Shown: in pieces, positions 3,370 through 24,095 of the stretch
Layout of the letters: each line of letters starts with the position of its first letter
Position numbering within the stretch: the stretch's first letter is position 1
Source: Candidatus Wolfebacteria bacterium
Lineage (GTDB): Bacteria > Patescibacteriota > Minisyncoccia > UBA6257 > UBA9933
Length of the DNA stretch: 64,000 nt
NCBI GenBank assembly: GCA_016188075.1
Contig: JACPIO010000017.1
Span: forward strand, 23,406-87,405
Direction of reading: 5' to 3'
Position numbers and translations under genes: made by a program
The notes under the pieces: generated by a model
Seen by the model: the letters and a program-made list of their open reading frames with translations, nothing else
Told to the model about the DNA's origin: nothing
The model's database searches: none

Positions 3370-5070
3370 TTATTTAAACACCCTTTTCGTCTTCATATAC
3401 CACTTCTCTATAGCAGAGAATCGGTCCGAGGGCAAGGCAATAAAATTTTCTTCAAAACCTTGAAGTCCGCCGCGAATTACATAAAGGTAATTCGGCGAAA
3501 AAAGAAAGATGGCCGGAGCCTCGCCGGAAATAAGCGAGTTTAAACTGGCTAAATCTTTTCTCCGAGCCGTCTCGTCTTCGTCAGTCCGGATCGATTCCAA
3601 GAGCGCGTCGGCCAGCCGGCTTTCGTAAAGAGACAAATTCAGCCCGGGATAAAATCTTTCCGAAGAATGCCAAAAGGAAAAAGGATCGGGATTTTCGCCA
3701 AAAGTGTTTCCAAAAAGAATCATTTCATAGTCGCGAGCTTTGAGCACGCTGTTCGTAATTTCCTCGTGAGACTTCACCGAGACGTTAAGCTTCACGCCGA
3801 TTTTTAACCAGTCGGAAGCAATAAGATTCGCCGCCTCAACCAAAAAGGAATTGTCCGGCACAATTAGATTAAATTCCATTTTGGCAGTTTCTCCGGAACC
3901 GGCAATCAGCCGACCGCCCTTGTCAAGGAGCGGCCCGATTCTTTTTTCCATTATTCCCCCTTCACCCGGGCGCCAGCCGTTTTCCGTGAAAAGAGACAAC
4001 GCTTTGTCCGGCAAAATAAGAGCGGGCTCGCCGTAAGGCGCGGCCTTGTATCCCTCCATTCCGGGAAGAAGCGGCCCCTCTACTCGGAGGGCGTGATTCC
4101 CGAAAACTTTCTCAATAATTTTTTTGCGGTCAACGGCAAGCCCCAAGGCAATTCTTATATTTTTTTCTTGGAGAGCCGGAGCGGAGGCTAAATTAAAGAA
4201 AATGGCGTTGTAGCGGGGCATTCTCAAATCGTACGTCTGCTTCGCGACCGTGATTTTTTCCAAATCCGGCGCGTCGAGATTGCCCGCGCCGTCAACTATC
4301 CCCCTGTTTACCGCTTCAATCAATTCGTCCTTGCTGGGATAGAATTTGAAAATCAGATTATTCAAATACGGCCGCTCCCCTAAATAATTTTCGTTCCTTG
4401 TAAGCTGATATTGACTGATGAATCCGTCTCTTTTTTTCTCGATCGAAAGAAATTTAAACGGTCCGCTCGCGACCGGTTCCAGGTTAAAACTGGAAAGCCG
4501 GATATTGGCCGGCGGCAAAACCCCGAAGATATGCTTGGGAATCGGTCTCAAATCTTTCAAATTGTTTTTAAAGAAGGCGTAAGGAGAAGCTAATTTTAAT
4601 TTGAATTCCAATTCGCTTACTCGCTCGGTCTCCACCCCCTGCCAAGCGAGAAACAAGGGAGAACGAGTATCGGGATCCTGAATCAGATTGATCGTAAAAA
4701 TAACGTCATCGCTCGTAATCTCCACTCCATCATCCCAACGGGCATCGGGCTTAAGCCGGAGATTCCAAGATTTACCCTTGTCGTTCACCTTATAACTCTC
4801 CGCCAAATCCAAAACGTCGCTGAATAAAATTTCCGTCAAATCCCTATCCGGATCGTTCTCGCCCACCAAGACCGGATTCACAAAACTTAATTGCCCGACT
4901 ACGCCTTCGCGGTATTCGCCGCCCAAAGCCGGAATTTCTTTTGTTTTCTCGCCGATAAAATTCGCGCCAATAAAAATTCCGCTTACCGCGAAAACCAAAA
5001 GGCTGGAAGCAAAAATCAACCTCTCAAGGCGCGAAAAAATTTTCCAGATTTTAAGGATTCCCGAAAACAA
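3370..5070 (-). CDS. ABC transporter substrate-binding protein, family 5 (oligopeptide/dipeptide type)
   Basis: 566 aa; N-terminal signal/TM, SBP_bac_5-like body (…DVIFTINLIQDPDTRSPLFLAWQGVE…). Confidence 0.75.
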   Translation of the reverse strand: MFSGILKIWKIFSRLERLIFASSLLVFAVSGIFIGANFIGEKTKEIPALGGEYREGVVGQLSFVNPVLVGENDPDRDLTEILFSDVLDLAESYKVNDKGKSWNLRLKPDARWDDGVEITSDDVIFTINLIQDPDTRSPLFLAWQGVETERVSELEFKLKLASPYAFFKNNLKDLRPIPKHIFGVLPPANIRLSSFNLEPVASGPFKFLSIEKKRDGFISQYQLTRNENYLGERPYLNNLIFKFYPSKDELIEAVNRGIVDGAGNLDAPDLEKITVAKQTYDLRMPRYNAIFFNLASAPALQEKNIRIALGLAVDRKKIIEKVFGNHALRVEGPLLPGMEGYKAAPYGEPALILPDKALSLFTENGWRPGEGGIMEKRIGPLLDKGGRLIAGSGETAKMEFNLIVPDNSFLVEAANLIASDWLKIGVKLNVSVKSHEEITNSVLKARDYEMILFGNTFGENPDPFSFWHSSERFYPGLNLSLYESRLADALLESIRTDEDETARRKDLASLNSLISGEAPAIFLFSPNYLYVIRGGLQGFEENFIALPSDRFSAIEKWYMKTKRVFK

Positions 5071-5076
5071 AGTGGG

Positions 5077-5298
5077 TTAAAAAGATTGCCCGACTATATT
5101 AAAAAGCGAGAGGCCGACAAAAATCAAAGAGAGAACGACGGTGGCGAAAAAGATAACGCGCTCCAGCCCTCGGCGTTGATGATAGACCTCGCCCTCCACG
5201 CCTCCGAAAATAGAAGAGGCGCCGGAAGACCGCTCTTGAAGCAAGATCAAAGCGATCAAAAGAACGGAAACGATAATTTGAACAATAGAGATGAACAT
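5077..5298 (-). CDS. secG: preprotein translocase subunit SecG
   Basis: 73 aa, two TM helices, LLQERSSGASSIFGG...RRGLE signature. Confidence 0.8.
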   Translation of the reverse strand: MFISIVQIIVSVLLIALILLQERSSGASSIFGGVEGEVYHQRRGLERVIFFATVVLSLIFVGLSLFNIVGQSF

Positions 5299-5332
5299 AG
5301 ACGGTAATTGGTAATTAGTAATTAGAAATTTT

Positions 5333-5695
5333 TTACTTGTATACTCTTTTCACGGCAAAGTGGATTAAAAAATTCGTGAGTCCGATAATAAGCGTAGCAT
5401 AAAAAAGAGGCAAAAGTCCATTGATGGTCAAAGTGGCAGAGTAGAGGTCGAGAATGTAGAGTAATATCATATTCACCAAAATTATTCCTAGACCCAAGGT
5501 CAGAAAAATAATCGGGCCCAAAATCAGCTTGAAGACCGGACCCAGAAAGAAGTTAATAAAGGTAAAAATAGCGGCAACCTGGGTCGTTGACCAGAAGTCG
5601 GAGGGAATGCTCACGCCGGACACAAAATTGTTTACCACCCAAAAAGCGACCAGATTGGAAAAAAACGCGATAATGAACCGAGAGGCGATTTTCAT
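5333..5695 (-). CDS. membrane protein, DUF360 / phage-holin-4_2-like family
   Basis: 120 aa, 4 predicted TM helices, LGPIIFLTLGLGIILVN pattern. Confidence 0.55.
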   Translation of the reverse strand: MKIASRFIIAFFSNLVAFWVVNNFVSGVSIPSDFWSTTQVAAIFTFINFFLGPVFKLILGPIIFLTLGLGIILVNMILLYILDLYSATLTINGLLPLFYATLIIGLTNFLIHFAVKRVYK

Positions 5696-7662: not shown

Positions 7663-7953
7663 ATGCAAGCGATAAAAAAATTCCTCGAAAAAATTCAAAA
7701 TTCCGACGAGGCGGCGAAAAAACGCTGGGTGGCGGGCGCGAGCGCCCTTGCCATGATCATGATCATTTTTTTCTGGGCTTTCACAATGAATCCGTTAGCC
7801 GATTCGACCTCTCGTCTTCGCGGAGAGGCGGGGCCGGGTTTCTGGGAAATTTTTACAAGCGGTTTAAGAGAGGTAACGGCGTCGATCAAAAATGAATTGA
7901 AAAATCTGTCTTCAACATTAATCGAAGAGCGATCAATTACCATAGAGAAATAA
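7663..7953 (+). CDS. hypothetical small membrane protein
   Basis: 96 aa, one TM helix; its stop overlaps the gyrA start. Confidence 0.4.
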
Positions 7954-10460
7954 TGATTATGGAAAATCAAAAAAATCAGCGCGTCGAAAAACGCGAAATC
8001 ACGGAAGAATTGAAAGAATCCTATTTGAACTACGCGATGTCCGTTATCGTCTCGCGCGCTCTGCCGGACGTCCGGGACGGCTTAAAGCCGGTGCAGCGCC
8101 GAATTCTCTGGACAATGTGGGACGACGGCTTAACCCACAGCGCCAAATTTCGGAAATCAGCTAACGTAGTCGGGGCGGTTTTGGGCCGTTACCACCCGCA
8201 CGGCGATGCGGCAGTTTACGACGCTCTGGCCCGCATGGCCCAAGACTTTTCGCTGCGGTATCCTTTAGTTGACGGTCAGGGTAATTGGGGCAGCGTTGAC
8301 GGGGACAATCAGGCGGCCATGCGTTACACGGAGGCAAGACTTTCCAAGATTGCCGAGGAAACGCTTTTCGATATCGAAAAGGAAACTGTTGATTGGCAGC
8401 CGAATTATGACGCCACGCGCCAGGAACCAAAAGTTTTACCGGCCAAACTTCCCAGTCTTCTTTTAAACGGCACAATGGGCATTGCCGTGGGCATGGCCAC
8501 GAACATCCCTCCACATAACTTGGGAGAAGTCATTGATGCCGCCGACCACCTAATCGTGAATCCCAAAGCAACGACCGAGGATTTGATGAATCACATCCAA
8601 GGCCCGGATTTCCCGACCGGCGGGATTATTTACAATAAAAAAGCCATTGTCGAAGCTTATATTTCCGGCCGCGGCCCCATCACCTGCCGAGCCAAATCCG
8701 AAATCGAAGAGCGCAAAGCCGGACAATTCAATATCGTAGTTACGGAAATCCCCTATCAAATCAATAAATCCGAACTTTTAATCAAAATCGCCGAGCTCGT
8801 TAACGAGAAAAAAATTGAAGGCATCCGCGACCTTCGAGATGAAAGCGACAGAGACGGAATGAGGATTGTGATTGAACTCAAGACCGACGCGGTGCCGCAG
8901 AAAATTTTAAATCAGCTTTATAAACACACAGACCTCCAAAAAGATTTTCATTTGAATATGATTGCTTTGGTTCGGGGTATCGAACCCCAACTTTTATCCT
9001 TGAAAGAAATTTTGGCCGCCTACCTCGAACACCGAAGAGTGGTGGTGGAAAAACGAACCCGGTTCGAACTTCAGAAAGCCAAAGAAAGGGCTCATATTCT
9101 CGAAGGTTTGTCCCGTGCGCTTTCGGTCATTGATAAAATCATCGCCACCATCAAAAAATCAAAAGACCGGGACGAGGCGCGGGTCAATTTGGTAAAAAAT
9201 TTCAAACTGACGGAAATCCAGGCAACGGCGATTTTGGAGATGCGGCTTCAGACTTTAGCGGCTTTGGAACGCCAGAAAATCGAGGACGAACTCGAAGAAA
9301 AAAGAAAATTGATTATCGAGCTCGAAGCCATTCTCAAAAGCCCGGAGAAAATTCAAAAAATCATAAAAAACGAACTTCAGGAATTGAAAAAAAATTACGG
9401 CGACGAACGCCGAACCCAAGTGGTCGCAGGCGGCCTTCAAGAATTCAAACAGGAAGATTTAGTACCTCAAGAAGAAACCATTATTACTTTCTCGGAAGAC
9501 GGCTACGTGAAACGACTCCCGCCCTCAAGCTTTAAAACGCAGAAACGCGGCGGCAAGGGATTAATTGGTCAGGAAATGAACGAGGAAGACCTTTTGGCGC
9601 ATTTCATTTCCGCCGATACCCACGACAATATTTTATTTTTTACCACCCGGGGCCGGGCCTTTCAGACCAAAGTCTATGAAATACCGGTCGGCAGCCGCAC
9701 TGCCAAGGGAAAACTGATTCAGAATTTTTTGGAAATCCCCGCGGAGGAAACCGTGAGCGCCATTGTTACCTACGCGGCTCACAGACTACAGACTACCGAC
9801 TACAGTAAAAATCAGAAAGCCGTAGACCGTAGTCTGTCGACGCTAGACAATTACTTAGTAATGGCGACTAAAAATGGCTTGATAAAAAAGACTTCGCTCG
9901 CGGATTTTTCTAATGTTCGTCGGAGCGGCATTCTGGCTATGAAACTTCAAAACGACGACCAGCTTAAATGGGCAAAACTTTCTTCGGGCAAAGATGAAAT
10001 CATTTTGGCAACTGGCCGCGGACAAGCCATCAGATTCAAAGAAGCCGATCTCCGGGCCATGGGCAGGACTGCCTCCGGGGTCAAAGCCATAAGGCTAAAG
10101 AGTGGTGATTTTGTCGCTGGACTTGATATAATTAAGACAAGTTCCAAATTACCAATTACCAATTACAAATTACTTATTGTGACCGAAAATGGGTTTGCCA
10201 AACAGACTTCTTTGAAAGATTACAAAATTCAGAAACGCGGGGGCGGCGGCATAAAAACCGCTAAGGTTAATCAAAAAACCGGGCGCGTGATCGCGAGTCA
10301 AATTCTCGAAAATCAGGAAGACTTACTTGCGATCTCAACCAAAGGACAATTGATTCGAACGAAAATCGCGAGTATTCGCTTAGCGGGCCGCGCCACCTCC
10401 GGAGTGCGCATTATGAAATTAAAAGAAGGAGATAAAGTTGCCGGAATAGTATGTCTTTAA
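7953..10460 (+). CDS. gyrA: DNA gyrase subunit A
   Basis: 835 aa; [25 protein letters not shown], active-site region and C-terminal beta-pinwheel repeats. Carries in-frame low-complexity insertions at 9781-9850 and 10141-10175. Confidence 0.95.
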
Positions 10461-11725
10461 CCCGCAATCAAACAATCATCATCGGCGCCGGCGTGGTCGT
10501 TGTTATCGTCATTGTTTTGATTTTAGTCGGCGTTCTGCCCGGGCTTCAGAGCCCGACCGATAAGCCGCCGGCAGTCACGCTTACTGTCTGGGGCATTGAC
10601 GACCAGCCGGCTTTTAACGCTTTGATTGATGGTTATAAAAAAATCCGGCCCAATGCTTCAGTCCTCTACGCCCAAATCCCGGAAGCAAGCTACGAAGAAA
10701 ATCTTGTGAATTCTTTGGCGGCCGGAACCGGCCCGGATGTTTTTATGATCCCAAACGGCCTGATCCGAAAACATGGCGGAAAAATGTTGGCGGCGCCGGC
10801 AAATCAGCTTTCCTTAGGAATGCTTCGCCAGCTTTTCCCTCAAGTTGTCGAGCAAAATTTAGTGGTTCAAAATCAAATTTACAGCCTGCCGCTTTATTTG
10901 GATACCCTGGCGCTTTTTTACAACAAAGACATTTTTGACGCCAAGACCATTTCCCTGCCGCCCCAAACCTGGAAAGATTTTCAAAACATTATTCCTAAAA
11001 TTCGGGAAAATAATGAATCAAATCAGATTGTGAAAGCCGCGGCCGCGATCGGCGGATCAAAAATCAGCATTAAATCCGCCTCGGATATCTTAAATCTTTT
11101 AATGATGCAATTTGGTAATCCCAAAGTAACCACCGAGGAATCTATAAATTTTGACGATCAAGGCCTTCAAGCTTTAAATTTTTATCTCCAATTTGCGAAT
11201 CCCGTAAGTCCGTCCTATACCTGGAACGATAACTTGGGAAATTCGATTGACAATTTCAGTCAGGGAAAAACCGCGATGATTTTCGCCTACAACGGAGACG
11301 CGCCTCTAATTAAAGCTAAAAGTCCGTTTTTGAATTTCGGCATCGCGGCAATGCCCCAATTCAATTTATCCCAACCCGTAAACCAGCCGAATTACTGGGG
11401 ACTCGCTGTTTCCCGCCAAACCAAAAAAGCGGTCTGGGCATGGGATTTTATTATAAATACAACTACGAACCAATTGATTATCGAGAATTACATTCAAATC
11501 AAAGACCAGTCGCCGGGCCTCCGCACTTTAATCCAAAATTATGTTAATGATCCGAATCTCGGTGTTTTCGTAAAACAAGCCCTAACAGCCCGGGCTTGGC
11601 CCGAACCGGATCATAATTTAGTCGGGCAATCGTTTTCCAACGGCATTGCTTCGGTTTTAACCGGCCAAGTTTCGCCAAAACAAGCGCTGGATAGAATTAC
11701 CAATGAAATCAATGCGCTACAATGA
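10451..11725 (+). CDS. ABC transporter substrate-binding protein (family 1, sugar-type)
   Basis: 424 aa; N-terminal TM anchor, SBP_bac_1-like body. Confidence 0.65.
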
Positions 11726-12204
11726 AATATCAAAGATTAAAAATAAAAGATAAGATTTTTCCGTTTTTAATTTGTGTTTTTGCTTTTTGGTTTTTAATTT
11801 TTGATTTATTACCGGCGCATGCCGCCATCCTCCCTGCTCCGAGCGGTCCCGGCGGCCAATATAACTACTGCGACCTACTTCATTTAGGTCAAAACATTAT
11901 TAACTTTATCGTTTCCCTTATCTTCCCTATCGCCACGGTAATGGTTGTTGTCGGCGGAATTTTCATTATGACCGCCCGAGAAAAACCGGATCAAGCCAAG
12001 AAAGGCCGGGAAATCGCAACAGCTGCTGTGATCGGAATTCTTATTACCTTGCTCTCCTGGCTTATATTGGATACAATATTTAAAATAGTGGCTGGTAGGA
12101 GCCCGCAAGCAGGCGGCGGGCCAGCAGTAATTCAAGGGTTGGGCCGCCCATGGAACGAACTAAGATGTGGTAGCCTTCCTTATGGATCAAATCCGGGCTA
12201 CTAG
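11722..12204 (+). CDS. TrbC/VirB2-like pilin-family protein, paralog 1
   Basis: Signal peptide plus two hydrophobic helices separated by a short basic loop (…MTAREKPDQAKKGREIA…), matching VirB2/TrbC topology; first of five tandem paralogs. Confidence 0.45.
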   Translation: MKYQRLKIKDKIFPFLICVFAFWFLIFDLLPAHAAILPAPSGPGGQYNYCDLLHLGQNIINFIVSLIFPIATVMVVVGGIFIMTAREKPDQAKKGREIATAAVIGILITLLSWLILDTIFKIVAGRSPQAGGGPAVIQGLGRPWNELRCGSLPYGSNPGY

Positions 12205-12245
12205 AAATACGGATCAGGGACGTCGCAAGTCCTTAGGTTCAGAAA

Positions 12246-12650
12246 TTGGCGAAGAAAATGAACACCCAAAAATATCAAAAAATATCCATAAGTATCTATA
12301 AGTATCTTTTAATATCTGTAAGTATCTTTTTTTTGATTGCGAATGTTGTTTTGGCTCAAACCTATGACGCCGACCAAGCTGCCCGTGATCTCGCCAGAGG
12401 TTCACCAATTGACAGGCCGGAAAAAGTTTTTCTGGTTCTCAAAAAAATACTTCAGTGGACATACACCATTTTTTTTATAATGGCAGTCTATTTTCTTTTG
12501 CTGGCGGCCTTTACGTATTTGTCCGCCAGCGGTAATCCTGAAAAAATCAAAGCCGCTTCCAGCCAGCTTCTCTGGGGAATGGTCGCTATTGCCGTAGCCT
12601 TAATTTCTGTCGGGGCGGCAGCGATAATCAGGGGTTTTCTTACTCCTTAA
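12246..12650 (+). CDS. TrbC/VirB2-like pilin-family protein, paralog 2
   Basis: Signal peptide (…VVLAQT), helix - SASGNPEKIKAASS - helix. Confidence 0.5.
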   Translation: MAKKMNTQKYQKISISIYKYLLISVSIFFLIANVVLAQTYDADQAARDLARGSPIDRPEKVFLVLKKILQWTYTIFFIMAVYFLLLAAFTYLSASGNPEKIKAASSQLLWGMVAIAVALISVGAAAIIRGFLTP

Positions 12651-12694
12651 ATAAACTTCAGAGATTAAAATCGCTTGATCCTTCCAAATTTATA

Positions 12695-13120
12695 ATGAAT
12701 TTCCAAAAAATTATAAAAAATTCTAAAAAAATCTTGACTTTTTTCATCCTATTTTCCAACTTCTTGTTTCTCGTTCCGCATCCATTAGCTTTAGCGGCCA
12801 TCACTCCGGGCCAAGTTCCGACCGCGGGAGATTTAGACGTTACCCCCTCGCCGGTAAACAGCCCCCAAGACTTGGAACGGGTTACCAAGAACGCTACTAG
12901 CGGTTTTTATGTAAGTTTTTTTATTCTAGCTGTTCTGTTTATTTTAATTGCTGCTTATAAATATCTTTTTGCAATGGGAGACGTTGAAAAACTAAAAAGC
13001 GCTCGCCTTATGCTTATTTATGCGGCAATCGCTATTGCCGTGGCCTTAATGGCTGTTAGTTTCGAGCTGATTATTAAAAATTTTTTAGCTCTTCCCAATG
13101 CCGGGATCCCCAACCAATAA
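12695..13120 (+). CDS. TrbC/VirB2-like pilin-family protein, paralog 3
   Basis: Signal peptide, helix - AMGDVEKLKSARL - helix. Confidence 0.5.
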   Translation: MNFQKIIKNSKKILTFFILFSNFLFLVPHPLALAAITPGQVPTAGDLDVTPSPVNSPQDLERVTKNATSGFYVSFFILAVLFILIAAYKYLFAMGDVEKLKSARLMLIYAAIAIAVALMAVSFELIIKNFLALPNAGIPNQ

Positions 13121-13220
13121 ATAGGAAGTGTTTTATAAATACCTTGAAATTTTCTTCTTAATACCTTAAAATTAAACTATATAAAAGTAAAAAGGTCGAA
13201 ATAAACTTTATCAATCTAAA

Positions 13221-13619
13221 ATGAAATTAACAAACAACAAAAAAATCTTCATAGTCGGCGGAATAACAATTTTAACCTTATTACTAGCAACATCCGCCTT
13301 GGCCCAAAATCCTGATCCTACAACACGGACCGGCATAAGTCGTATAGCGGGAGTCCCAACAAACCCAAACGAACTCCTTACTAGGGTAGGCGACTTCGTA
13401 AGATGGGCATATATTCTCTTTTTTATTCTAGCTGTTCTGTTTGTTCTGATTGCAGCCTATACCTACCTTACAGCTGCTGGCAACCAGGAAAAAATCGATA
13501 AGGCTAAAACTATGCTGATTTACTCTGCCGTTGCGGTTGCTGTGGCCTTAATGGCAATAGTATTTAACACTATTATAGGAGGATTCGTCGGTGGTGGCGG
13601 CGCCATCCCCAATCCATAA
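13221..13619 (+). CDS. TrbC/VirB2-like pilin-family protein, paralog 4
   Basis: Signal peptide (SALAQN), helix - AAGNQEKIDKAKT - helix, Gly-rich C-terminus. Confidence 0.5.
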   Translation: MKLTNNKKIFIVGGITILTLLLATSALAQNPDPTTRTGISRIAGVPTNPNELLTRVGDFVRWAYILFFILAVLFVLIAAYTYLTAAGNQEKIDKAKTMLIYSAVAVAVALMAIVFNTIIGGFVGGGGAIPNP

Positions 13620-13776
13620 GTCATTAACTATCCCCCGCACTCTTGGTTATTTAATGGTTAGTGCGGGGCAGGGCCAAGAACGATATTTTTTATTGTTTTT
13701 CGCCCTGCCCGGTAGTAGACCCTGCCCAATTTTACGATTTAATCTTACGACTTACGATGTCGTAAATAATTAATAC

Positions 13777-14163
13777 TTGCTAATGTCTAAATTTTTTAGA
13801 AAAATTTTTTACGCAGCGGTGGTTTCCTTTTTACCGATCTTTTTTATAAGATTAAAGGTTTTCGCAACAGAGGTTGGTGGCACAAGCGGCCAAACCTATA
13901 CCCTTCAAGACCCTCTCGGCAACCAAAATATTCTTACCATCATAGGCCGGGTTATTGACTACCTAATTTACATTAGCGTTCCGCTCCTTGCCTTATTTAT
14001 TCTCTGGGGCGGTTTTCAGATTTTGGGCGCCAGAGGCGATGTGGAAAAAGTCAAAAACGGCCGGGCCACTATTCAATGGGCAGTCATCGGCTTTACGATT
14101 ATTTTAGTATCAAAAGGAGTAGCTCTTATTCTTTTAAGAATTTTGTACCCTTCTAGCCCCTAA
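13777..14163 (+). CDS. TrbC/VirB2-like pilin-family protein, paralog 5
   Basis: TM, helix - GARGDVEKVKNGRA - helix. Confidence 0.45.
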   Translation: MLMSKFFRKIFYAAVVSFLPIFFIRLKVFATEVGGTSGQTYTLQDPLGNQNILTIIGRVIDYLIYISVPLLALFILWGGFQILGARGDVEKVKNGRATIQWAVIGFTIILVSKGVALILLRILYPSSP

Positions 14164-14263
14164 TTTCTCAAAAAAGAAACCCGTCAGCCAGACAAGAGTC
14201 TCGTAGCGCGTTGCTACGGACCAAAGCCCAGCTGACGGGCAAGACCTAAAACCCGAAAGAGCA

Positions 14264-14719
14264 TTACTTCTTATCGATTGAAACCTCCGCGGCATCACCA
14301 TCGCCGCGGAGCCTGAAGTTCGTAAACTTCACAGCCCCTAACCACTGAGTGGTGTCCGCGCCAAACTCAAGCGCCGGACTCCCGTCCCATGGCAGGAGCC
14401 AAAGACGACCCTGATTCCGTGCCCGGAAGTTAGTCTGGCCAGGGAGCTTCACCCATCCCGACCAGCAATCCAATCTTAACGGGACGCGAATCTGAGGCTG
14501 CAGAAAGCTCAAATGGTAATCTTGAGCATCCCCGCAGGTTGGATATTCCGCCGCCGCCGCTACCTTGGCCGCCGCAGCCGCCTTATTTCGTTCTGCTTCG
14601 GCAGCCTTACCTCTTCCTTCCCAATAGTCGTAACCCTTGACCGCCATAACCAAAAGGGGGCCGGCGATCACAAGCGCCCAGCTAACACCCTTGATCGAAG
14701 AAGTCATCCCGATATGCAT
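14264..14719 (-). CDS. membrane-anchored protein, possible NfeD-like partner of the SPFH protein
   Basis: 151 aa, N-terminal TM segment, C-terminal beta-rich segment; 1-nt junction with the upstream SPFH gene; GC-rich. Confidence 0.4.
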   Translation of the reverse strand: MHIGMTSSIKGVSWALVIAGPLLVMAVKGYDYWEGRGKAAEAERNKAAAAAKVAAAAEYPTCGDAQDYHLSFLQPQIRVPLRLDCWSGWVKLPGQTNFRARNQGRLWLLPWDGSPALEFGADTTQWLGAVKFTNFRLRGDGDAAEVSIDKK

Positions 14720-15811
14720 TTACGGCCTCCTTCCGAGAAGAGCAGTGAGCGCAGCACTCACCACCCCTCGACTCTCGGACGAAATGGTCACTTTTTTCTC
14801 ATCGATCGTCTTCTTTACCTTATCGCGCTCGGTCTGGACGATTTCGAGCGCTTGTTCCGGCGTAAAGTTAAGGGGGGCGGCCATGAGCTCTCGAATCCTC
14901 TCGCGCACATGTTCGAGCTCAATCCGTTCAGCCTCCCTCTGCCGCTCTTCTCGTCGAGCCTTCTCGTAATCCTCCTGTACTTCTGGAGGTCGAGAGAGCT
15001 CACCAACGAGCACTTCGATAACATCAATACCCCATTCGATGGCTCGTTGGTCAGCCCGGCGTTGGATACCGTCGAGTATGAGATCCCTTGCAGCCACCGC
15101 GTCGTCATCGTTTAAAGTCCTGACGGTGGAACGCAGATTCTGTTGGACGAGCTCGACCAAACTTCTGTCGATTACCTCCTCGCCAACAGAGAGTACCTGC
15201 CCGGGGTTTTCAACCCGCCAGCGGATTGCCGACGGCTCCACGGTGATCCGAACGTTATTCGACGAAATCACGGTGAATTTATCGGCCCGAGAACTCCTTT
15301 CGCGTGCATCTACCGCCTCGGCAGCCATAATGGGCCGAGGCAATATCCAACTCCACCCCTCGGAAAGTTCGTAACGGGCGCGAACCAACCCCACTTCTTC
15401 CGGAGTTCCGTCGGGCAACGGACGTATTGCGGTAAACCGTTGCAGCAGACGTCCTCCAAAAATAGTCGGCACACCCCGGTGAGCAATGGGAATCGAGATT
15501 AATCCGGCCACTCCGAAGTAGCCGAAAACGACGAAAGCTACCCCTATATTGTAAGGCCAAGAGATAAGGGTGTATGCGACACCCGTTAATACTCCGACGA
15601 GGAGAATTCCGAGAAGAAACGACCGAACTCGGCTGAGTCTTCGGGGTTCTTCGTCACCGCCCCAAGGCGAGATCGAAGGGGCACTAGGAGGAGTAGGCGG
15701 GGTAGTTATAGCCGTTGTCGGTCGGCGCCCACGGCGCCCAAGAAGGTACCCCAACAAGGCCACGAGAAGCCCTACTACACCGACACCTATCCATGTCCAC
15801 ATCGCATCCAT
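14720..15811 (-). CDS. SPFH/band-7 (stomatin/prohibitin/HflK-C-like) domain protein
   Basis: 363 aa; two N-terminal TM helices, SPFH core and a long Glu/Arg coiled coil (EDYEKARREERQREAERIELEHVRERIREL). Markedly higher GC than the surroundings. Confidence 0.7.
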   Translation of the reverse strand: MDAMWTWIGVGVVGLLVALLGYLLGRRGRRPTTAITTPPTPPSAPSISPWGGDEEPRRLSRVRSFLLGILLVGVLTGVAYTLISWPYNIGVAFVVFGYFGVAGLISIPIAHRGVPTIFGGRLLQRFTAIRPLPDGTPEEVGLVRARYELSEGWSWILPRPIMAAEAVDARERSSRADKFTVISSNNVRITVEPSAIRWRVENPGQVLSVGEEVIDRSLVELVQQNLRSTVRTLNDDDAVAARDLILDGIQRRADQRAIEWGIDVIEVLVGELSRPPEVQEDYEKARREERQREAERIELEHVRERIRELMAAPLNFTPEQALEIVQTERDKVKKTIDEKKVTISSESRGVVSAALTALLGRRP

Positions 15812-16201: not shown

Positions 16202-17658
16202 GCTACGTTTAAACGTAGCAGTGAGAACGTAGCAACGAGGGAGGAACGCCGACAGACGAAAAACCCAGGGGAGCAAAAACCATTAAAACTCTTTTCCTTA
16301 GGAGCCGGCTTGATGATAAATCAAACAATTCTGTCCGCTACGTTTAAACGTAGCGGCGAGGCATACATCAAAAATACAGAGAATGACCGACCGAAAGAAA
16401 TCAATCAGTTCCTCCCGTTCGTTCTCCTGCTCGAAATTAATACTCCGTAGTTAACGTTTCGCAAAATTTTAGAGTTGCGCTCGCGTCATTATCTTTCACG
16501 ACATTATCTTTTAAAACTGCCTGCTACGTTTAAACGTAGCAGGCAGGATAACCATAAAACATCCTCGCCGCAAGCGGCGAGGTATTCGGCGATTAGCGCC
16601 ATAAACAAACTTTTGAAAAGATATTCCAATCTAAAAAGATATTCCGGGCGAAAACTAAAGTTGATCAAGAAAATCCCAGCGACCCCTTCCCTTGTAGGCC
16701 GGAATTTTTCTTCTTTTGTACCGCGGTTCGCGGAATCTTAACGGAATATTTTTTAATTTCTTATCCGGGTTGATTTTTTCCCTCCTTTTTAATCCCCTTT
16801 TCACAAAACTAATGGTGTCGGGACTTACGTCAACAATTTCACCTATTTTCCGGTAAGTTAAACCGCGTTCCAAAAGCAAGAGAGTCGCCAATCTTCTTTC
16901 AAGAAGATTAATTTCGCTTCCCGAAAGAAATTTATTTAAACCGCAGAGCAAGTCTTTTTCGGAGGTTGCTCCCCTTATCTCCGTCAAGAACTTTTGCCAT
17001 GCCGCCCTCTTCAAAATCTCCCCTATGTATTTTTTATTAACATTGACCATCTTTTTATTCTTTTAACCATTACTCCGGCTCCATTCACCATTCTAACAGT
17101 CTTTTGCTAATCCTTAAATTATAAAACAAGTAATTATATATTGCTATGTTTAAACATAGCAGGTTAACTGAAAAAGAAGGGTAGAAGGGCTCCGGATTCT
17201 ATTATCTCTATATCAGCATGAGTGACGTCAGTATATCAATATAAACGATATCAGCAGAGATCATTTCGGCGCAGGACGATTCTCTTCGATCTGCTACGTT
17301 TAAACGTAGCAGACAGAGTAAGGATAATCGCAGCTTAGCCAAAAAAACCAGTCCAAATTGCAAAACTATTATTTTCTCTCCACTACGTTTAAACGTAGCG
17401 CGCAGGGTAGGAATAGACAGAAGATGGTCGAGTAACTGGCGCGAATAAACAGCGGCTCCGAATACACGACAGCCGAGAAAGCAAGAGGGGCAAATATTTT
17501 CAGAAAGCAATACTGCGAAAAATACCGCAATGCTACGTTTAAACATAGCAGCGAGACGTAAATCAACTACCTCGCGGTTAGCACTCGCAAAATTTTGAAT
17601 TTATGCTCGTAACGCTATCGTCTAACTTCTAAAATTGCACGCTACGTTTAAACGTAGC
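16202..17658. repeat. array of eight 18-bp perfect palindromes GCTACGTTTAAACGTAGC (irregular spacing)
   Basis: Cores at 16202, 16336, 16523, 17143, 17293, 17382, 17532 and 17641. Flanks extend the palindrome differently in each copy (a perfect 30-mer at 16517-16546). The copy at 17143 carries a compensatory C>T/G>A pair. Confidence 0.85.
16655..17050 (-). CDS. TrpR-like (YerC/YecD family) helix-turn-helix protein
   Basis: 131 aa; ...LTYRKIGEIVDVSPDTISFVKRGLKR matches the Trp-repressor/YerC HTH; basic C-terminal tail. Sits inside the palindrome array. Confidence 0.6.
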   Translation of the reverse strand: MVNVNKKYIGEILKRAAWQKFLTEIRGATSEKDLLCGLNKFLSGSEINLLERRLATLLLLERGLTYRKIGEIVDVSPDTISFVKRGLKRREKINPDKKLKNIPLRFREPRYKRRKIPAYKGRGRWDFLDQL

Positions 17659-17779: not shown

Positions 17780-17865
17780 GGGCGAGTGGCGGAACTGGAA
17801 TACGCGTACGCCTTAGAAGCGTATGGACTATGTCCTTGAGGGTTCGAATCCCTCCCCGCCCACCA
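17780..17865 (+). tRNA. tRNA-Leu (UAG), CCA encoded
   Basis: Type II cloverleaf: GGGCGAG/..CCCGCCC acceptor (one A-C mismatch), anticodon loop CTTAGAA, long variable arm, T-arm GAGGGTTCGAATCCCTC, then ACCA. A start at 17777 is an alternative parse. Confidence 0.75.
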
Positions 17866-17876
17866 CAGAATTATCA

Positions 17877-18161
17877 ATGTATTATGTTTACATTTTACAA
17901 AGCTTGAAAGATAATCGCACTTATGTTGGTTATACTCAAAATATCACCAACAGGTTGCATCAACACAATAATGGCGAGGTAAGGGCTACTGCAAACAGGC
18001 AACCATTCAAGTTGTTGTATCTAGAGGAGTGTCAAAACTTAATCGAAGCTAAAAGTAGGGAAAATTATTGGAAATCTGGTGGCGGCAGAAGAAAGCTTAA
18101 AAAATATTTTTTGGATGGGTTCCCGCCCCGATTATCATCGGGGCGAGGCTCGCCCAAATAG
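17877..18161 (+). CDS. GIY-YIG nuclease superfamily protein (YhbQ/UPF0213-like)
   Basis: MYYVYILQSLKDNRTYVGYTQNITNRLHQHNNG...: YVY...YVGYT...RL.QH is the GIY-YIG core. Lies immediately 3' of the tRNA-Leu gene. Confidence 0.65.
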   Translation: MYYVYILQSLKDNRTYVGYTQNITNRLHQHNNGEVRATANRQPFKLLYLEECQNLIEAKSRENYWKSGGGRRKLKKYFLDGFPPRLSSGRGSPK

Positions 18162-18165
18162 ATTT
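18128..18165. repeat. GC-rich multi-hairpin repeat (ccgccccgattatcatcggggcgaggctcgccc)
   Basis: Near-identical unit at 26919-26949, partial at 27012-27031; sits between convergent genes and probably acts as a bidirectional terminator. Confidence 0.55.
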
Positions 18166-18226
18166 GGGCGGCGAATCTCCCCCTCGGCACCTGGGTTAGA
18201 AGTTTGCGATTTAACGCGGGAAGGTT

Positions 18227-21200
18227 TTAGCGCGAGAAGAGTTTCAAAAGCTCCGCGATTTTTGTTTGAAGCAGAGAAACATTGGCTATAAGCTCCGCGG
18301 GATTGGCGTAGAGAGTGGTTGAGGTCGAAATCGGGGTTGAGGTCGCGTACGGCGGAGTCGAAGTAACGGAATAGCCTACTGCAGGAACAACCGTTATTGT
18401 ATTACCAGCTGCTGATTGAATTCCGGCCGGAATAGAGGCGTTGGAGTTTCGTCCGTAAGCCCGGATATCGGAGGCTGAACCAATGGCAAAAATGTATTGT
18501 CCGCCCGAAGAAGCTCCGCCGGAGATAAGTGGAGCGACGTCAGCTCGCAATTCCAACTCAATAGCGCTATTTTGCGGGACAATGGCCGGGATTGAAAGAT
18601 TAAAGACGTAAACCCAAGTGTCTCTATTAGTTGAACTGGCAATGATTGGTCCAGCCACCACCGTGCCGCTATTCAATAATCTGGCATTTTGGAAAGATGG
18701 CGTTGTCGCGTTGTTGGTCGAGACTGCGGTTATGGTTAAAGCGTCAACCCTAATTGGTTCGGCGGAGTTGTTGGCAAAACGAAAGGTGGCTAAACTGTTA
18801 TTGACTGATCCCATCACCACTTGCGTGGACGACGCGGTATTTGGGCTAATGGATACTCTAAGAAAGGCTGACGTATCCGGCGTGGGCGGAGGATTGCCAG
18901 TTGCTGGCGCCCCGGCAACACGGCGGCAAACATCAAATTGAAGCATTTTCTGGATTGTTAGATTCCCGACAATGCCTGTGCCATTCGGGTTAAGTCCTCT
19001 CGCGATTAGAGCATCGCGCAGGTAATCACGTTGAAATGCTTTTACGGCATCAAAGGTTGGATTAAGAATCAAGTCGAATGAGTAATGTCTATCCTCCAGA
19101 TGCCCGATAAATTGACGGATGGATGAATCCGGGTAAGCGCTTGGATTTATATATCCCAAACTCACCAAACACTCCTGGACCTGGGCTTTTTGAGTCGTGG
19201 TTAGATTTACCGCGGAAATATCCGGGTCAAGTGGGCCGCCGAATCTTCTCAATGGCAATCCAGCACCACCACTCCCTGGCCCTCCTATACCACCCATACC
19301 ACCAGCCGTACCTCCTATACCACCTGGTCCACCTCCAGATGCAGCAGCTTCTGCAGCGGCGGCCGTTGCTGCTGCCTCTGCTTGTTCCGCTAGTCCTTGC
19401 GCTCCCGCAGAAGGACCCGCGGTATCTGACGCTCCGCCGCCAGCTTGAGAAACCGTCCCTCCTGCGCCTGTCGAAGAAATAATCGGTCCTTGATTGGCGC
19501 ACAATTGATTTAATTTTCTTTTTGTATAAGTGCCGACAATGCCCGTGCCGTTTTCTCGGCCGCCAGAAGTGTAAATTTCCGAGGAAAATTGATTTTGAAT
19601 TAGTATAACCGATGACGAGGTTTGAGGCCCAAAGGTACCCAAGCCAAGAGCTTCGCTACTAGGCAAAGTAAATTGAGCAGACGGAATCGTTGCCAAACAT
19701 TGTTGTAATCGAACAACTTGGCTTCTATTGTTGTTGGGTGAATCTCGGCGCAACTCCGTTGAATCATTGTAAAGATCAAAAAGCGGTCCCCGAACTGCCG
19801 GCAAAATCTCAAAATTCAAAAGATTAGCTGTGTCAAAAACATTACTACCGGTAATCGCGGTGTGAACTCTTAAGACAAGACTGGAGAGTTCCGAAACGTC
19901 GCGGAAGGTCAAGCGAACCGAAGTACCGCGCGTCAAATCATACTGGGTTTCCGGGTTAAAACTTTCAATCCGGGCGTTTTGAGACACATAACTCCACTTA
20001 ACCCGATCACGGCAAATCTGTCCTTCTCGGCAGAAAGGGGCGGCCCAGGTAAAAGTGGCGGATTCTCCGGCGTTAAATCTGGTTTTTCCGTCCGGCAAAA
20101 GAGAGAAATTAGAGTTGCCTAAGTTGGGAACAAGGGCTTGGGCTGTGGCCGGCGAAGTTAAGGGACCAGAAGTCGGCGCGCCAGAACCAGGAGCAACTAC
20201 TCCGGGACCGCCAGTTCGCGGTCCGACTGTTACTGAAATACTTCTTCTGCCTATTTCGCCTTGGCCAAACGCGGTAGTCGAAAAAAGCGCTCTCAAAACA
20301 ATGTTGACGGTTCTCGAAGTGCTCGTGCTGTTAGTGATTAAAACTTGAGCCGGGAACAAAGTTTCGTGGAAATTATAAGGACCGTTACCTTGTCTTCCGC
20401 AGTATTCTCGGCCGGCATAACCAACGGTCACTGCGTTATCGTCATTTCCTTCACAGCCAAGAGTAATAATGGGAGAAAAACCAAGACCCGGCCGCTTGGA
20501 CGCATTCAGAGCTACCGTGGTTCCGGAATTAATTGTTATAGATGTAACTGGAGTCGGATTGCTTGCGGAGATGGCGGTAAAAGATGAAATAACCGGGCCA
20601 GAGTCAGCAACGCCCGAGTCAGGAGACGGCGCCGAAAGAGTTTGAACCACCCTAAAGATACCCGCGTTAGTGCTTGGGGCAGACCGCGCTCCGGGAATGG
20701 CAACTGGCCTCCCGCCTAACCAGTAGTAACCGTCGGGCACAATATAATACTGATCCGGCATAATCACCCCCAACGTATTTGAGCTTGCCGCTGGAGTGGG
20801 ATTAAGAGGATTACCGATAAAATACGGGTTATCGCCGTTATAATTTACAGCAATAGTGTCGCCGACTTGGGCCCCGGATCCGATATTAGCCTTGATAGTT
20901 AAAAGTCTGTAGCTGCCGCGAGGAATTCTAACCGGAGTTGTTAATTCAATAAAAGTGGCATTAAGAAATGCAGATGCTGAGAAATTTGCGCTGCCGACAT
21001 TGACTGCGCCGTTCCACAAGGTGAGTCCGTTTATAGCCCGCGGGTTGGTGCCACCGAATTTCAATCCAATCCGCCGGAGATCAATGTCATAGCTATCTGA
21101 AGCGAGACGCAAAATTGTTGTTGTAGTATTTTGGGAGTTGGCAAGAACTTCCAAGTTGCCACCGCGCGGCGAGGTATCGTCGAGAGTTATCGTAAAGGCG

Positions 21201-23047: not shown

Positions 23048-23090
23048 ATGTTTTTATTGTAGCAATAATAGCAAAAAATAGAAAAAATTC

Positions 23091-23378: not shown

Positions 23379-23384
23379 AAAATT

Positions 23385-23996: not shown

Positions 23997-24095
23997 AAAT
24001 TATTTAATTAAAAACCGTAGCCACTTTTCCTGACGTAATTTTAGCAGGATTCATAGCGGAAAAACAAGATGGGGCGGTTGATAACTAAGCACATG

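Follow-up and report, generated by a model that had tools for sequence, protein, structure and literature searches.

A tandem array of three classes of VirB2-like pilin genes led by a solute-binding protein gene in Candidatus Wolfebacteria

A 64-kb stretch of chromosomal DNA from a Candidatus Wolfebacteria bacterium (Patescibacteria, ultra-small), hereafter the window, contains five consecutive + strand ORFs (11722-14163, Table 1), each of which was shown to encode a pre-protein of Pfam family PF18895 (T4SS_pilin). Their coordinates agree exactly with the row of same-strand genes reported in a first-pass annotation of this DNA. PF18895 two-helix proteins are thought to build the pilus of a T4SS that serves the life of Patescibacteria on host cells. 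The array is of conserved composition rather than freely diversified, and a solute-binding protein (SBP) gene is the conserved leader of the module. On balance, it is rather probable that the array represents a three-class T4SS pilin set, whose T4SS core is encoded elsewhere and which is assembled into a pilus-like or conduit structure at host contact.

Table 1. Features of the pilin locus (window coordinates)
Feature	Length	Position	Strand	Remarks
gyrA		7953-10460		
Family-1 (carbohydrate-type) SBP, membrane-anchored	424 aa	10451-11725	+	Pfam SBP_bac_1 1.3e-25, SBP_bac_8
Pilin 1, class A	160 aa	11722-12204	+	PF18895 33.6 bits, above 26.6 cut-off
Pilin 2, class B	130 aa	12258-12650	+	PF18895 25.4 bits, E 1.5e-5; loop GNPEKIK
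Pilin 3, class B	141 aa	12695-13120	+	PF18895 23.5 bits, E 6e-5; loop GDVEKLK
Promoter-like site		13144-13172		TTGAAA-17-TAAAAT, before pilin 4
Pilin 4, class B	132 aa	13221-13619	+	PF18895 26.1 bits, E 8.9e-6; loop GNQEKID
Two adjacent stable RNA hairpins		13636-13710	+	In 163-nt gap between pilins 4 and 5
Pilin 5, class C	126 aa	13783-14163	+	PF18895 37.6 bits, above cut-off; loop GDVEKVK
Long hairpin		14180-14239		Between convergent pilin 5 and SPFH-partner gene
Terminator-like site		14196-14180	-	
SPFH partner	151 aa	14264-14719	-	Adjoins array in part of clade
SPFH/Band_7 protein	363 aa	14720-15811	-	Band_7 2.8e-18

PF18895 was the top Pfam match of all five proteins (E 2.4e-9 to 6e-5); two of them score above its curated cut-off and three fall 0.5-3 bits below. 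The same family is carried by 55 of the 58 database homologues found with a profile of the five paralogues, and more than 44,000 representative clusters of this type were counted at E <= 1e-10. Two of the starts are alternative. Pilin 2 would have 134 aa from a TTG at 12246 or 130 aa from the ATG at 12258, which is used by the NCBI and Logan gene calls, while pilin 5, which closes the array, is open from a TTG at 13777 (128 aa) or an ATG at 13783.

As judged by hydropathy, each pilin has three hydrophobic segments, namely an N-terminal signal-like segment ending in an AxA-type site and two transmembrane-length helices. The AlphaFold2 model of pilin 4 (pLDDT 72.8) has helices at 7-25, 49-84 and 89-124, and the signal peptide and two-helix topology proposed earlier is thus common to the five proteins. 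In pilin 1, cleavage is predicted after AHA34, and the hairpin is followed by a long C-terminal tail. The loop motif claimed for the whole array, in the form G(D/N)xEK(I/V/L)(K/D), is true for pilins 2-5 only, since pilin 1 has REKPDQAKK in its place. These features suggest Sec-dependent export of the pilins and processing by signal peptidase I. The mature protein, about 97-126 residues long, would then sit as a hairpin in the cytoplasmic membrane, with both ends outward and the short lysine-rich loop toward the cytoplasm.

Like VirB2 of the Agrobacterium Ti plasmid and TrbC of RP4, the window pilins combine a long signal peptide, a two-helix hairpin and a short basic loop, and the mature size is about 100 residues in both groups. 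PF18895 genes, where linked, adjoin VirB3-, VirB4- and VirB6-type genes, as classical pilin genes do. Scores against PF04956 (TrbC/VirB2) were 14-17.8 bits for a cut-off of 27.9, the highest being the sub-threshold match of pilin 5 (E 0.004). None of the five matched DUF4134. Alignment of the pilin classes with an Agrobacterium-type VirB2 alignment by hhalign gave a probability of at most 10%, which is not significant, and tblastn against 72,556 plasmids returned no match. A fold search gave no significant link either, with E 1.9 for the top PDB match, 4.5 for the Aeropyrum conjugative pilus and 9.4 for the T-pilus; no solved structure was found for any pilin relative. The TrbC/VirB2 identity first assigned to the array therefore holds for PF18895 membership, architecture and gene context, but not for PF04956 or DUF4134, and 'VirB2-like' here means architecture and gene context, not demonstrable homology. 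In classical T- and P-pilins a dedicated peptidase joins the two ends of the chain into a ring. In the window-type system, by contrast, the ends of class A appear to be joined by a predicted disulfide and no TraF-type peptidase was seen; moreover, classical systems have one major pilin and this one has three classes.

The three classes (A, B and C) are mutually homologous (profile-profile probability 97.5-99.1%, E 8e-12 to 2e-18) and are ordered A-B-B-B-C in the window. Relatives have one class-A pilin, with cysteines and in first position, one class-C pilin and one to five class-B pilins, and positional orthologues were found in at least 65 species. The patterns were ACB (28 loci), ACBB (13), ABBBC (5), ACBBBB (4) and ABBBBC (2); class A stands first in 63 of 65 arrays, and class C is a single gene in nearly all related loci. 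For each window pilin, the positional orthologue in related genomes outscores every in-genome paralogue. Thus, pilin 1 scores 76-108 bits with its orthologues (L008_p1, L009_p1, L013_p1) and at most 39 with its own paralogues. The corresponding orthologue scores are 109 and 100 bits for pilin 2 (L008_p2, L009_p2), 98 for pilin 3 (L008_p3), 102 for pilin 4 (L008_p5), and 112 and 114 for pilin 5 (L008_p6, L009_p6). The paralogues are indeed strongly diverged in their exposed regions, as first noted: the N-terminal segment is the most divergent part (5-33% identity), against 43-56% in the helix-loop-helix core of pilins 2-4. With three classes in conserved order, sequence comparison indicates that this is an old sub-functionalisation and no recent diversification. 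The 'diversified attachment toolkit' of the first-pass annotation is not supported by these ordered classes of old paralogues with orthologues in so many species. The array would be a fixed set, not an interchangeable pool, with one A, one C and a variable number of B pilins (three in the window). The classes may assemble together, B supplying most of the subunits and A and C, both single-copy, having specialised roles.

Class A carries four cysteines in 41 of 62 proteins. Eight two-cysteine variants keep C1 and C2 and lack both C3 and C4, whereas only C3 and C4 are kept in pilin 1 of the window. The only cysteines of mature pilin 1 are C50, immediately ahead of helix 1, and C149, in a PWNELRC tail. 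In class A, a disulfide probably holds the N-terminal segment and the C-terminal tail together.

Natural single-chain fusions also occur. P0060 and P0061 have, from their sequences, 6-7 pilin units behind one signal peptide, and P0065 (1775 aa) has 17 matched pilin stretches, a domain count taken from the match table only. The fusions speak for a placement of neighbouring units within a single assembly. Covalent chains of this length, which as membrane proteins would have 12 to 34 helices, are no less compatible with a complex embedded in the membrane than with an extracted fibre. It is accordingly possible, although unlikely, that no fibre is made and that the hairpins never leave the cytoplasmic membrane, where they would form a hetero-oligomeric ring or platform of the T4SS channel, a short stalk instead of a long pilus. 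The small pilin-like proteins of conjugation systems in wall-less and Gram-positive bacteria may act likewise. A protein of this kind from Mycoplasma integrative conjugative elements (ICEs) is the Mbov_0395-family 'pilin-like conjugal transfer protein' (NCBIfam NF045849), which shares with the window pilins its small size, its two helices and a monoderm (MPF-FATA-type) T4SS context. Pilins 2-5 match it below threshold (18-27 bits, cut-off 40) over 59-73 residues, with E from 2.5e-6 (pilin 2) to 1.3e-3, and the TrsD beside the array of relative L011 matches the Mycoplasma ICE VirB4 model NF045975. The Mycoplasma protein, however, is single-copy and on a mobile element, while the window array is chromosomal and multi-copy. 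Pili are generally missing from Gram-positive-type T4SSs (PMC10633639), and no Patescibacterium has been seen to bear a pilus of these proteins (PMC12857230). On the other hand, the extracytoplasmic N-terminal stretch and the C-terminal tails are the most variable parts, which fits surface exposure better than a buried platform, and the expansion of class B to 1-5 copies resembles that of major-subunit genes.

The SBP gene overlaps the end of gyrA at its start, and its TGA stop and the start codon of pilin 1 share the sequence ATGA (11722-11725); the module is probably co-transcribed and translationally coupled with it. The closest solved structures are sugar/maltose-type SBPs (4qrz, E 4.6e-27; GacH; MalE). 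In 72 of 79 related species the SBP gene is followed by a pilin ORF that starts less than 400 nt from its stop codon, and five of the other seven cases are contig ends. The Pfam scan of the window ORFs gave no match to an ABC permease or ATPase family. The protein may be a receptor, or a substrate or host-glycan binder. PrgZ/TraC of Enterococcus conjugative plasmids are pheromone-binding lipoproteins of the OppA/family-5 peptide binders that feed the host Opp permease. As extracellular receptors they are the nearest known precedent of an SBP homologue tied to a Gram-positive-type T4SS; unlike them, the window SBP belongs to family 1 (sugar type), has an uncleaved helix as its membrane anchor and is encoded immediately before the pilins.

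As the first-pass annotation had stated for VirB4 and VirD4, neither these nor VirB6 were found in the window in a Pfam scan of 53 ORFs, which covered all non-nested ORFs longer than about 170 aa. In 14 related long contigs, likewise, no T4SS core gene lies closer than 10 kb to the array, and the surroundings are housekeeping genes (gyrA, PNPase, FtsH, RNase J). In two other lineages the same module is joined to the core. The order in L011/L012 is SBP, four PF18895 pilins, a 750-aa gene, two TrbL_3, PrgI and TraC-like/TrsD; in L099 it is SBP, four pilins, a 450-aa gene, two TrbL_3, PrgI, TrsD, VirB4, SLT_2 and dnaA, VirB4 being seen in L099 as opposed to L011/L012. The array can thus be regarded, in agreement with its first description, as one of T4SS-type pilins, as PF18895 is the top match of all five and arrays of relatives adjoin TrbL/VirB6, PrgI/VirB3 and TrsD genes. 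Published tables list VirB4 for Wolfebacteria GW2011_GWA1_44_24, and VirB4 with TrsD for two further Wolfebacteria; the contig of the former (L016) has the same gyrA-SBP-array locus as the window. Relatives' context and the literature suggest that a core of VirB4, TrsD, PrgI/VirB3 and two TrbL/VirB6 lies elsewhere in the Wolfebacteria lineage. This core would pull out the hairpins and build them into a pilus-like or conduit structure where the cell touches its host.

The frequent pairing with an SBP, overlapping in the window, the housekeeping location away from T4SS genes, the missing cognate permease and the undetected hhalign link to classical VirB2 could also be read as a T4SS-independent module, in which the SBP, the two-helix proteins and, in some lineages, SPFH make up a membrane complex that takes up or senses a carbohydrate derived from the host. 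If so, 'pilin' would be a misnomer for the family in this clade. This is improbable: the SBP heads the module both behind gyrA and where it opens a contiguous T4SS cluster (L011/L012, L099), the PF18895 array of the one organism tested is part of a T4SS cluster and essential, and linkage to SPFH is partial (15 of 51 loci). The reading is further disfavoured because no class of transporter is known to consist of two-helix hairpins with a cleaved signal.

That organism is Ca. Southlakia epibionticum ML1, whose array SEML1_0014-0019 is essential by Tn-seq (Wang et al. 2023, PMC10633639); this is the sole experimental evidence for the PF18895 family. Its six sequence-divergent genes lie in a row, 0014-0016 being annotated as PF18895 and 0019 named pilin, and the system is a monoderm-type T4SS whose cluster is without a recognisable relaxase or coupling protein (PMC10633639). 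The ML1 array lies inside the T4SS cluster near dnaA and adjoins Hsp20 but no family-1 SBP gene, while the window array is SBP-led with its proposed core elsewhere.

Such arrays in Patescibacteria were described in 2023-2025 (PMC12102498, PMC10633639, PMC12857230), so the finding of the array is correct but not new. Quinonero-Coronel et al. (2025, PMC12102498) reported 441 tandem arrays of divergent VirB2-like pilins (2-11 genes, 383 assemblies), most abundant in Microgenomatia and Saccharimonadia and read as variation; a pilin gene was near virB4 in 1135 of 1948 genomes and thus not near it in a large share. The window array resembles these in phylum, in detection by PF18895, in its tandem same-strand arrangement and in divergence (18-28% identity to pilin 1, against a within-array mean of 25% in the published arrays). 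It differs in that it belongs to Paceibacteria (Wolfebacteria), lies behind gyrA and at least 10 kb from any T4SS core gene, and is SBP-led with a fixed three-class make-up; terms for these features are missing from the text of that paper. The three-class composition, the SBP leader and the 6-7-unit fusions are unmentioned in the text of the published array accounts.

Variation was proposed for the VirB2 paralogues of Bartonella and Anaplasma, diderm pathogens in which it is read as antigenic (cited in PMC12102498), and was suggested for Patescibacteria in that paper. Their clusters also hold several tandem pilin copies with divergent exposed parts. The paralogues in the window could accordingly be alternative major pilins, expressed singly or in shifting proportions, that vary the exposed surface for host-range adaptation or evasion, as the poorly conserved N-terminal segments, the 1 to 5 class-B copies between species, and the promoter-like site before pilin 4 with strong hairpins after it (differential expression being possible) would allow. 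We regard this as quite improbable, because positional orthologues are closer than in-genome paralogues, A and C are single-copy and nearly universal, and order is conserved; the Bartonella and Anaplasma genes are recent classical-VirB2 paralogues, unlike the old ones of the window with class-specific motifs and orthologues in many species. The idea could apply to the B copies alone. That the five are unrelated small hydrophobic ORFs, alike only in transmembrane composition, as three scores below the Pfam cut-off and many weak matches to unrelated membrane families might imply, is hardly credible, being refuted by the profile-profile E-values between classes, the conserved loop and helix motifs, the ordered orthologues and the size of the family.

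The promoter-like site was the best of the region, in a scan whose total count was not above the shuffled expectation. The paired hairpins between pilins 4 and 5 have a minimum free energy of -45.3 kcal/mol (shuffles -27.2, z = -4.95; 0 of 200 shuffles equally stable) and are possibly a partial terminator or an mRNA-stabilising element. The hairpin after pilin 5 (-31.7 kcal/mol, shuffles -18.4, z = -4.2) is likely a bidirectional terminator. The next two genes, the SPFH pair, had been taken as the start of an accessory island, but they are conserved neighbours in part of the clade, and the real difference from relative L009 starts only after about 15.9 kb. The pair has the same neighbourhood in L008 and L009, lies inside the array in L013 and L070, and is downstream of it in 15 of the 51 loci with more than 6 kb of sequence; its functional link to the array is uncertain. 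The G+C content of the SPFH/Band_7 gene is 56%, compared with 45.5% in its surroundings.

As listed in the table below, the window contains five consecutive ORFs, here called pilins 1 to 5, which lie directly behind a gene for a membrane-anchored solute-binding protein (SBP). Their products are identical to those of the public gene calls HYV91_02550 to HYV91_02570 (MBI2515039-43), which lie on an 87.5-kb contig of a Candidatus Wolfebacteria bacterium, and the locus was found again in Logan assemblies of runs SRR121134xx. When counted from the ATG of the public calls, pilin 2 has 130 and pilin 5 has 126 residues, and the gaps between the ORFs are 44-163 nt rather than 41-157 nt. Hydropathy analysis gave three hydrophobic segments in each protein. 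The N-termini carry a basic stretch, then a hydrophobic segment closing in an AxA-like site (AHA, VLA, ALA, ALA and VFA in pilins 1 to 5, respectively), where the precursors are predicted to be cleaved. Beyond this site lies a variable stretch of 17-24 residues, and then a pair of transmembrane-length helices with a short charged loop between them. For pilin 4, an AlphaFold2 model based on 43 homologues placed helices at residues 7-25, 49-84 and 89-124 with moderate confidence (pLDDT 72.8). The first-pass annotation was thus correct as to the place, number, strand and topology of the array, while the loop motif that it had ascribed to all five proteins, G-D/N-x-E-K-I/V/L-K/D, is present in pilins 2 to 5 and missing from pilin 1.

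Coordinates of the pilin array and of other features in the window
Feature	Position	Strand	Remark
Family-5 SBP (SBP_bac_5), peptide type	3370-5695	-	Second orphan SBP, upstream of the array region
Family-1 SBP, sugar type	10451-11725	+	N-terminal membrane anchor
Pilins 1 to 5	11722-14163	+	160, 134, 141, 132 and 128 residues
SPFH/Band_7 gene and 151-aa partner	14264-15811	-	G+C 56% vs 45.5% in surrounding DNA
Palindrome copies	16202-17658		Eight copies (<= 2 mismatches)
TrpR-family HTH gene	16655-17050	-	
tRNA-Leu(tag)	within 17780-24000		3' end overlapped by GIY-YIG ORF
GIY-YIG ORF	17823-18161		
1606-aa ORF	18227-23047	-	No Pfam match at E <= 1e-3
203-aa ORF	within 17780-24000		
371-aa ORF	29115-30230	-	Free-standing between topA and dprA
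PilO-like gene	31298-31825		Type IV pilus assembly; 17 kb from array
PPDK	47387-49913	-	Two overlapping ORFs: PPDK_N 48564-49913, PEP-utilizers_C 47387-48595
IleRS-like gene	56140-59763	-	1207 aa

Members of Pfam family PF18895 (T4SS_pilin) have a signal peptide and, behind it, a membrane hairpin of two helices with a short polar loop. The five proteins share this architecture, and the family was the top Pfam match of all five proteins, with 33.6, 25.4, 23.5, 26.1 and 37.6 bits for pilins 1 to 5. Pilins 1 and 5 pass the curated gathering cut-off of 26.6 bits, while pilins 2, 3 and 4 fall short of it by 0.5-3 bits (E = 1.5e-5, 6e-5 and 8.9e-6, respectively). These three, which form class B, are nevertheless tied to the family, since they are homologous in profile-profile comparison to class A (pilin 1) and class C (pilin 5), with E-values of 8e-12 and 1.6e-13, and since their homologues carry PF18895. 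All three classes are mutually homologous (hhalign E 8e-12 to 2e-18), and 55 of the 58 database proteins found with a profile of the five paralogues bear the domain. Sub-threshold matches to NCBIfam NF045849, a "pilin-like conjugal transfer protein" of Mycoplasma ICEs, were also obtained for pilins 2 to 5. When a profile of 43 sequences was searched exhaustively, it recovered 101,291 representative clusters at E <= 1e-3, of which 44,735 remained at E <= 1e-10; PF18895-type pilins are a very large family.

The proposal of a type IV secretion system (T4SS) pilin is therefore supported by PF18895, but not by the classical TrbC/VirB2 family PF04956 to which the proteins had been likened. Against the latter, pilins 1, 4 and 5 scored 14.0, 14.0 and 17.8 bits (gathering cut-off 27.9 bits) and pilins 2 and 3 gave no match. 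An hhalign comparison with four authentic VirB2/TrbC sequences taken from plasmid records, a narrow, exclusively alphaproteobacterial alignment that remote homology could escape, reached a probability of at most 10.3% and E-values of at least 0.003, near those of the reversed-sequence control. Foldseek returned no significant fold match (Aeropyrum conjugative pilus, E 4.5; T-pilus, E 9.4), the pilin profile, searched against PDB sequences, matched only designed or unrelated helical proteins, and pilin 5 had no tblastn match in 72,556 plasmids. DUF4134, the family of Bacteroidetes TraE-like pilins that had also been put forward for these proteins, did not appear among the Pfam matches of any pilin at E-values up to 1. 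Since the comparisons with classical pilins gave negative or uninformative results, the proteins are filed in PF18895 and not in PF04956, and the label "VirB2-like" rests on their architecture and gene context. Type IV (T4P, PilA-like) pilins were considered and rejected, as the proteins have no N_methyl match and no class III signal peptide but Sec-type signal peptides and two further helices. No TraF-type peptidase was seen in scans of the window, and PADLOC defence models did not match the five pilins, the SBP, or the neighbouring SPFH protein and its partner.

In BLASTP comparisons, each pilin is nearer to the gene at the same position in three related loci (L008, L009 and L013) than to the paralogues in its own genome: pilin 1 scores 94-108 bits against its orthologues and at most 39 against its paralogues, and pilin 5 scores 112-114 and at most 42. 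Class A comprises the cysteine-bearing first gene of the array, class B has the motif FFIxAVxFIxxAAFxYLTAxGDxEKxK and class C the motif NPLG...GAFQILTAGGxPEK. HMMs of the three classes, built from four loci, were run on 80 independent species-representative loci, of which 65 had arrays of at least two genes. The patterns were ACB (28 arrays), ACBB (13), ABBBC (5, the pattern of the window), ACBBBB (4), ABBBBC (2) and rarer others, and class A came first in 63 of the 65. Together with the orthology, these patterns define the array as one A, one C and one to five B genes. This is an old sub-functionalisation, in which the copy number changes in class B only. The array had also been read as a diversified surface toolkit; a conserved three-class set was found instead of free diversification, even if conservation is indeed lowest in the exposed N-terminal stretch of the pilins.

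Four cysteines in the pattern C-x5-14-C-x2-C ... PW-x3-C are found in 41 of the 62 class-A proteins. Eight variants keep only the first two, the third and the C-terminal one being lost together, and pilin 1 retains just C50 and C149, which correspond to the third and the C-terminal cysteine. This co-loss suggests that the disulfide pairs would be C1-C2 and C3-C4. The latter would connect the tail that follows helix 2 with the segment just ahead of helix 1, both presumably outside the membrane. Classical T- and P-pilins are cyclised head to tail, which the predicted class-A disulfide may loosely recall, with a different chemistry. The "LVPCG" motif of class A was also considered as a lipoprotein signal; this was discarded, since a lipobox does not accept proline at position -1.

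The SBP gene is tightly packed between its neighbours: its start overlaps the end of gyrA and its stop overlaps the start of pilin 1 (ATGA). Scans of the window revealed no ABC permease. A scan with an SBP alignment, using one genome per species, gave 396 relatives, the best 80 of which were analysed and belong to Wolfe-, Harrison-, Lipton-, Jorgensen- and other Paceibacteria. Among these, a pilin ORF starts less than 400 nt past the SBP stop in 72 of 79 loci (five of the other seven stop at a contig edge and two have pilin ORFs farther downstream), and the gene immediately upstream is gyrA in 61 of 69. A metagenome scan with the SBP of L011, a related contig, found three short, distant loci. 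We treat the SBP as part of the pilin module. In L009 (GCA_026394835.1, a Wolfebacteria MAG), the SBP lies in two overlapping ORFs without a gene call (L009:8434-9548); a sequencing or assembly frameshift is likelier than a pseudogene, since the copy in the near-identical Logan contig L010 is intact. With regard to the family-5 SBP of the window, its counterparts in L008 and L009 have genes for SecG and a Phage_holin_4_2 protein behind them; the window scan covered the SBP_bac_5 gene alone of these three. A trio annotated in this way is present in Ca. Southlakia epibionticum ML1 as SEML1_0634-0636, scored GD/ES/ES (growth-defective to essential).

The first-pass annotation had noted that VirB4 and VirD4 are missing from the window. 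In agreement with this, a Pfam scan of 53 ORFs, covering all non-nested ones longer than about 170 aa, found neither of the two, nor VirB6, PrgI or a relaxase. The link of the array to a T4SS comes from gene context in relatives. In the related contigs L011/L012, a four-gene PF18895 array is immediately followed by a 750-aa gene, two TrbL_3 genes (VirB6-like), PrgI (VirB3-like) and TraC-like/TrsD, within which the L011 contig stops. In the related contig L099, SBP_bac_1 precedes four pilins, which are followed by a 450-aa gene, two TrbL_3 genes, PrgI, TrsD and VirB4 (AAA_10/P-loop_TraG), then four small genes, SLT_2 and recF-dnaN-dnaA. Homologous pilin genes of this family are thus physically linked to T4SS core genes, and both of these intact clusters are headed by the same order of SBP and pilins. 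Published tables list VirB4 in Wolfebacteria GW2011_GWA1_44_24, whose contig has the same gyrA-SBP-array arrangement, and VirB4 and TrsD plus one nearby PF18895 gene in two further Wolfebacteria.

TrbL, PrgI and TrsD HMMs found no match in the 80 gyrA-type loci, a weak test with HMMs each made from a single L011 sequence. For this reason, a Pfam scan was added that covered 14 related long contigs and, in them, 45 large ORFs lying no more than 10 kb from the array. No T4SS family was among the 25 families listed of 40, all 25 being housekeeping (PNPase, FtsH, RNase J and others), so that the array appears unlinked from the T4SS core in the clade of the window. A search with the TrsD-like fragment of L011 returned no Wolfebacteria among the best 120 of 461 matches, which is uninformative on the window genome.

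Arrays of this type are already in the literature. VirB2-like pilins of Patescibacteria form 441 arrays of 2-11 genes with a mean identity of about 25%, an array being defined by at least two pilin-HMM matches (i-Evalue < 0.001, > 50% profile coverage) in tandem or one gene apart (PMC12102498). The window has five adjacent matches covering 58-71 of the 71 profile positions, in the genome of a member of the Patescibacteria named Candidatus Wolfebacteria bacterium at NCBI. It is a further example of this published phenomenon, and no new kind of system. In S. epibionticum ML1, a six-gene array lies within the T4SS cluster and is essential (PMC10633639); Table S2 of that study annotates SEML1_0014-0016 as PF18895. 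Unlike in the window, L011/L012 and L099, no SBP stands beside the ML1 pilins, and the terms "solute-binding" and "substrate-binding" are absent from the text of PMC12102498 and PMC10633639. In the one Patescibacterium that is amenable to genetics, both the T4SS and the pilin array are essential; what they do has been called completely unknown (PMC11665869). Gram-positive-type T4SS with pilins are unusual, and a pilus in a monoderm T4SS has been reviewed as an intriguing, unproven possibility (PMC12857230). The present comparison sharpens this open question by structured classes, an SBP leader and a class-A cysteine pattern.

The top of the exhaustive family search was dominated by single chains of 2-17 pilin units. 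Database proteins P0060 (606 aa) and P0061 (552 aa) contain seven and six PF18895 helix-loop-helix units, respectively, and are true fusions, as each has a single signal peptide, at the N-terminus, and none within the chain. P0065 (1775 aa) has 17 matched stretches according to the hit table, and L011 itself bears a two-unit fusion (L011:10001-10660). By the gene-fusion argument, the units of an array would stand side by side in one assembly, and the fusions support such co-assembly of pilin units. The hairpins might instead form a membrane-embedded complex rather than an extracted fibre. Since multi-unit fusions suit such a complex at least as well as a fibre, we keep this alternative, which nonetheless seems rather unlikely. 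Antigenic variation, in which the paralogues would be surface variants, could draw on the poorly conserved N-terminal stretch, but it is weakened by the composition of one A, one C and one to five B genes of old classes; their fixed order and their fusion in single chains argue for co-assembly instead.

Beyond co-assembly, a far-reaching model may be put forward, which we regard as improbable. The SBP together with one A, one C and n B hairpins would be a distinct device, namely a T4SS pilus or conduit that is obligately heteromeric and in which the SBP captures a glycan or signal from the host, so that the T4SS would be a receptor-guided import or docking organelle and not an exporter. It would be encoded as a stand-alone chromosomal operon behind gyrA in Wolfebacteria and relatives, and its class A, stapled by a disulfide, would correspond to pilin cyclisation without the need for an enzyme. 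An orphan sugar-type SBP leads the arrays in a large Paceibacteria clade and two intact-cluster lineages and offers a handle on the ligand of the machine. What deserves to be passed on is the three-class architecture led by the SBP, together with the poly-pilin fusions.

With respect to expression, the best sigma-70-like site of the region precedes pilin 4; the total number of sites was not above shuffled expectation. The gap between pilins 4 and 5 is filled by two strong hairpins (z = -4.95), and another hairpin lies past pilin 5 between convergent genes (z = -4.2). This site and these hairpins hint weakly at expression signals.

Elsewhere, the window has the content of an ordinary chromosome, with RNase Y, sigma factor, gyrA, topA, dprA, relA, parB, clpB, PolX, ArgRS, guaA, PPDK, IleRS, xerC-like, glyA, recA, tmRNA and five tRNA genes. 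The G+C content of the array region (12001-14000) is 40.7%. A reading of the SPFH gene and its partner as a horizontally acquired accessory island was rejected, as their synteny is conserved in several relatives despite the high G+C. The SPFH gene also exceeds the G+C of its locus in most relatives (mean +4 points), and it lies beside the array in several lineages and inside it in two loci (L013 and L070). In L009, the order is array, SPFH, M48 peptidase, TrpR, HD, ParA, ParB and RelA. Compared with it, the window has extra material between TrpR and ParB (17780-24000), which may be a real accessory island.

Around the TrpR-family gene, on both sides, lie the copies of the 18-nt perfect palindrome GCTACGTTTAAACGTAGC (0 expected by chance), in an otherwise non-coding 1.9-kb stretch ending at tRNA-Leu(tag). 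It occurs nowhere else in the 64 kb or in 99 related loci, and could represent operator sites or a REP-like element. The 371-aa ORF has a weak Pfam match to LAGLIDADG homing endonucleases (23.5 bits, cut-off 22.5), with no single stretch passing. The split of PPDK may be genuine, or it may come from a frameshift or an assembly error. In view of the PilO-like gene, the organism probably also has type IV pili, separate from the PF18895 proteins. Finally, the IleRS-like protein has a histidine-phosphatase domain (His_Phos_1) inserted at residues 529-691, between the halves of its catalytic domain.
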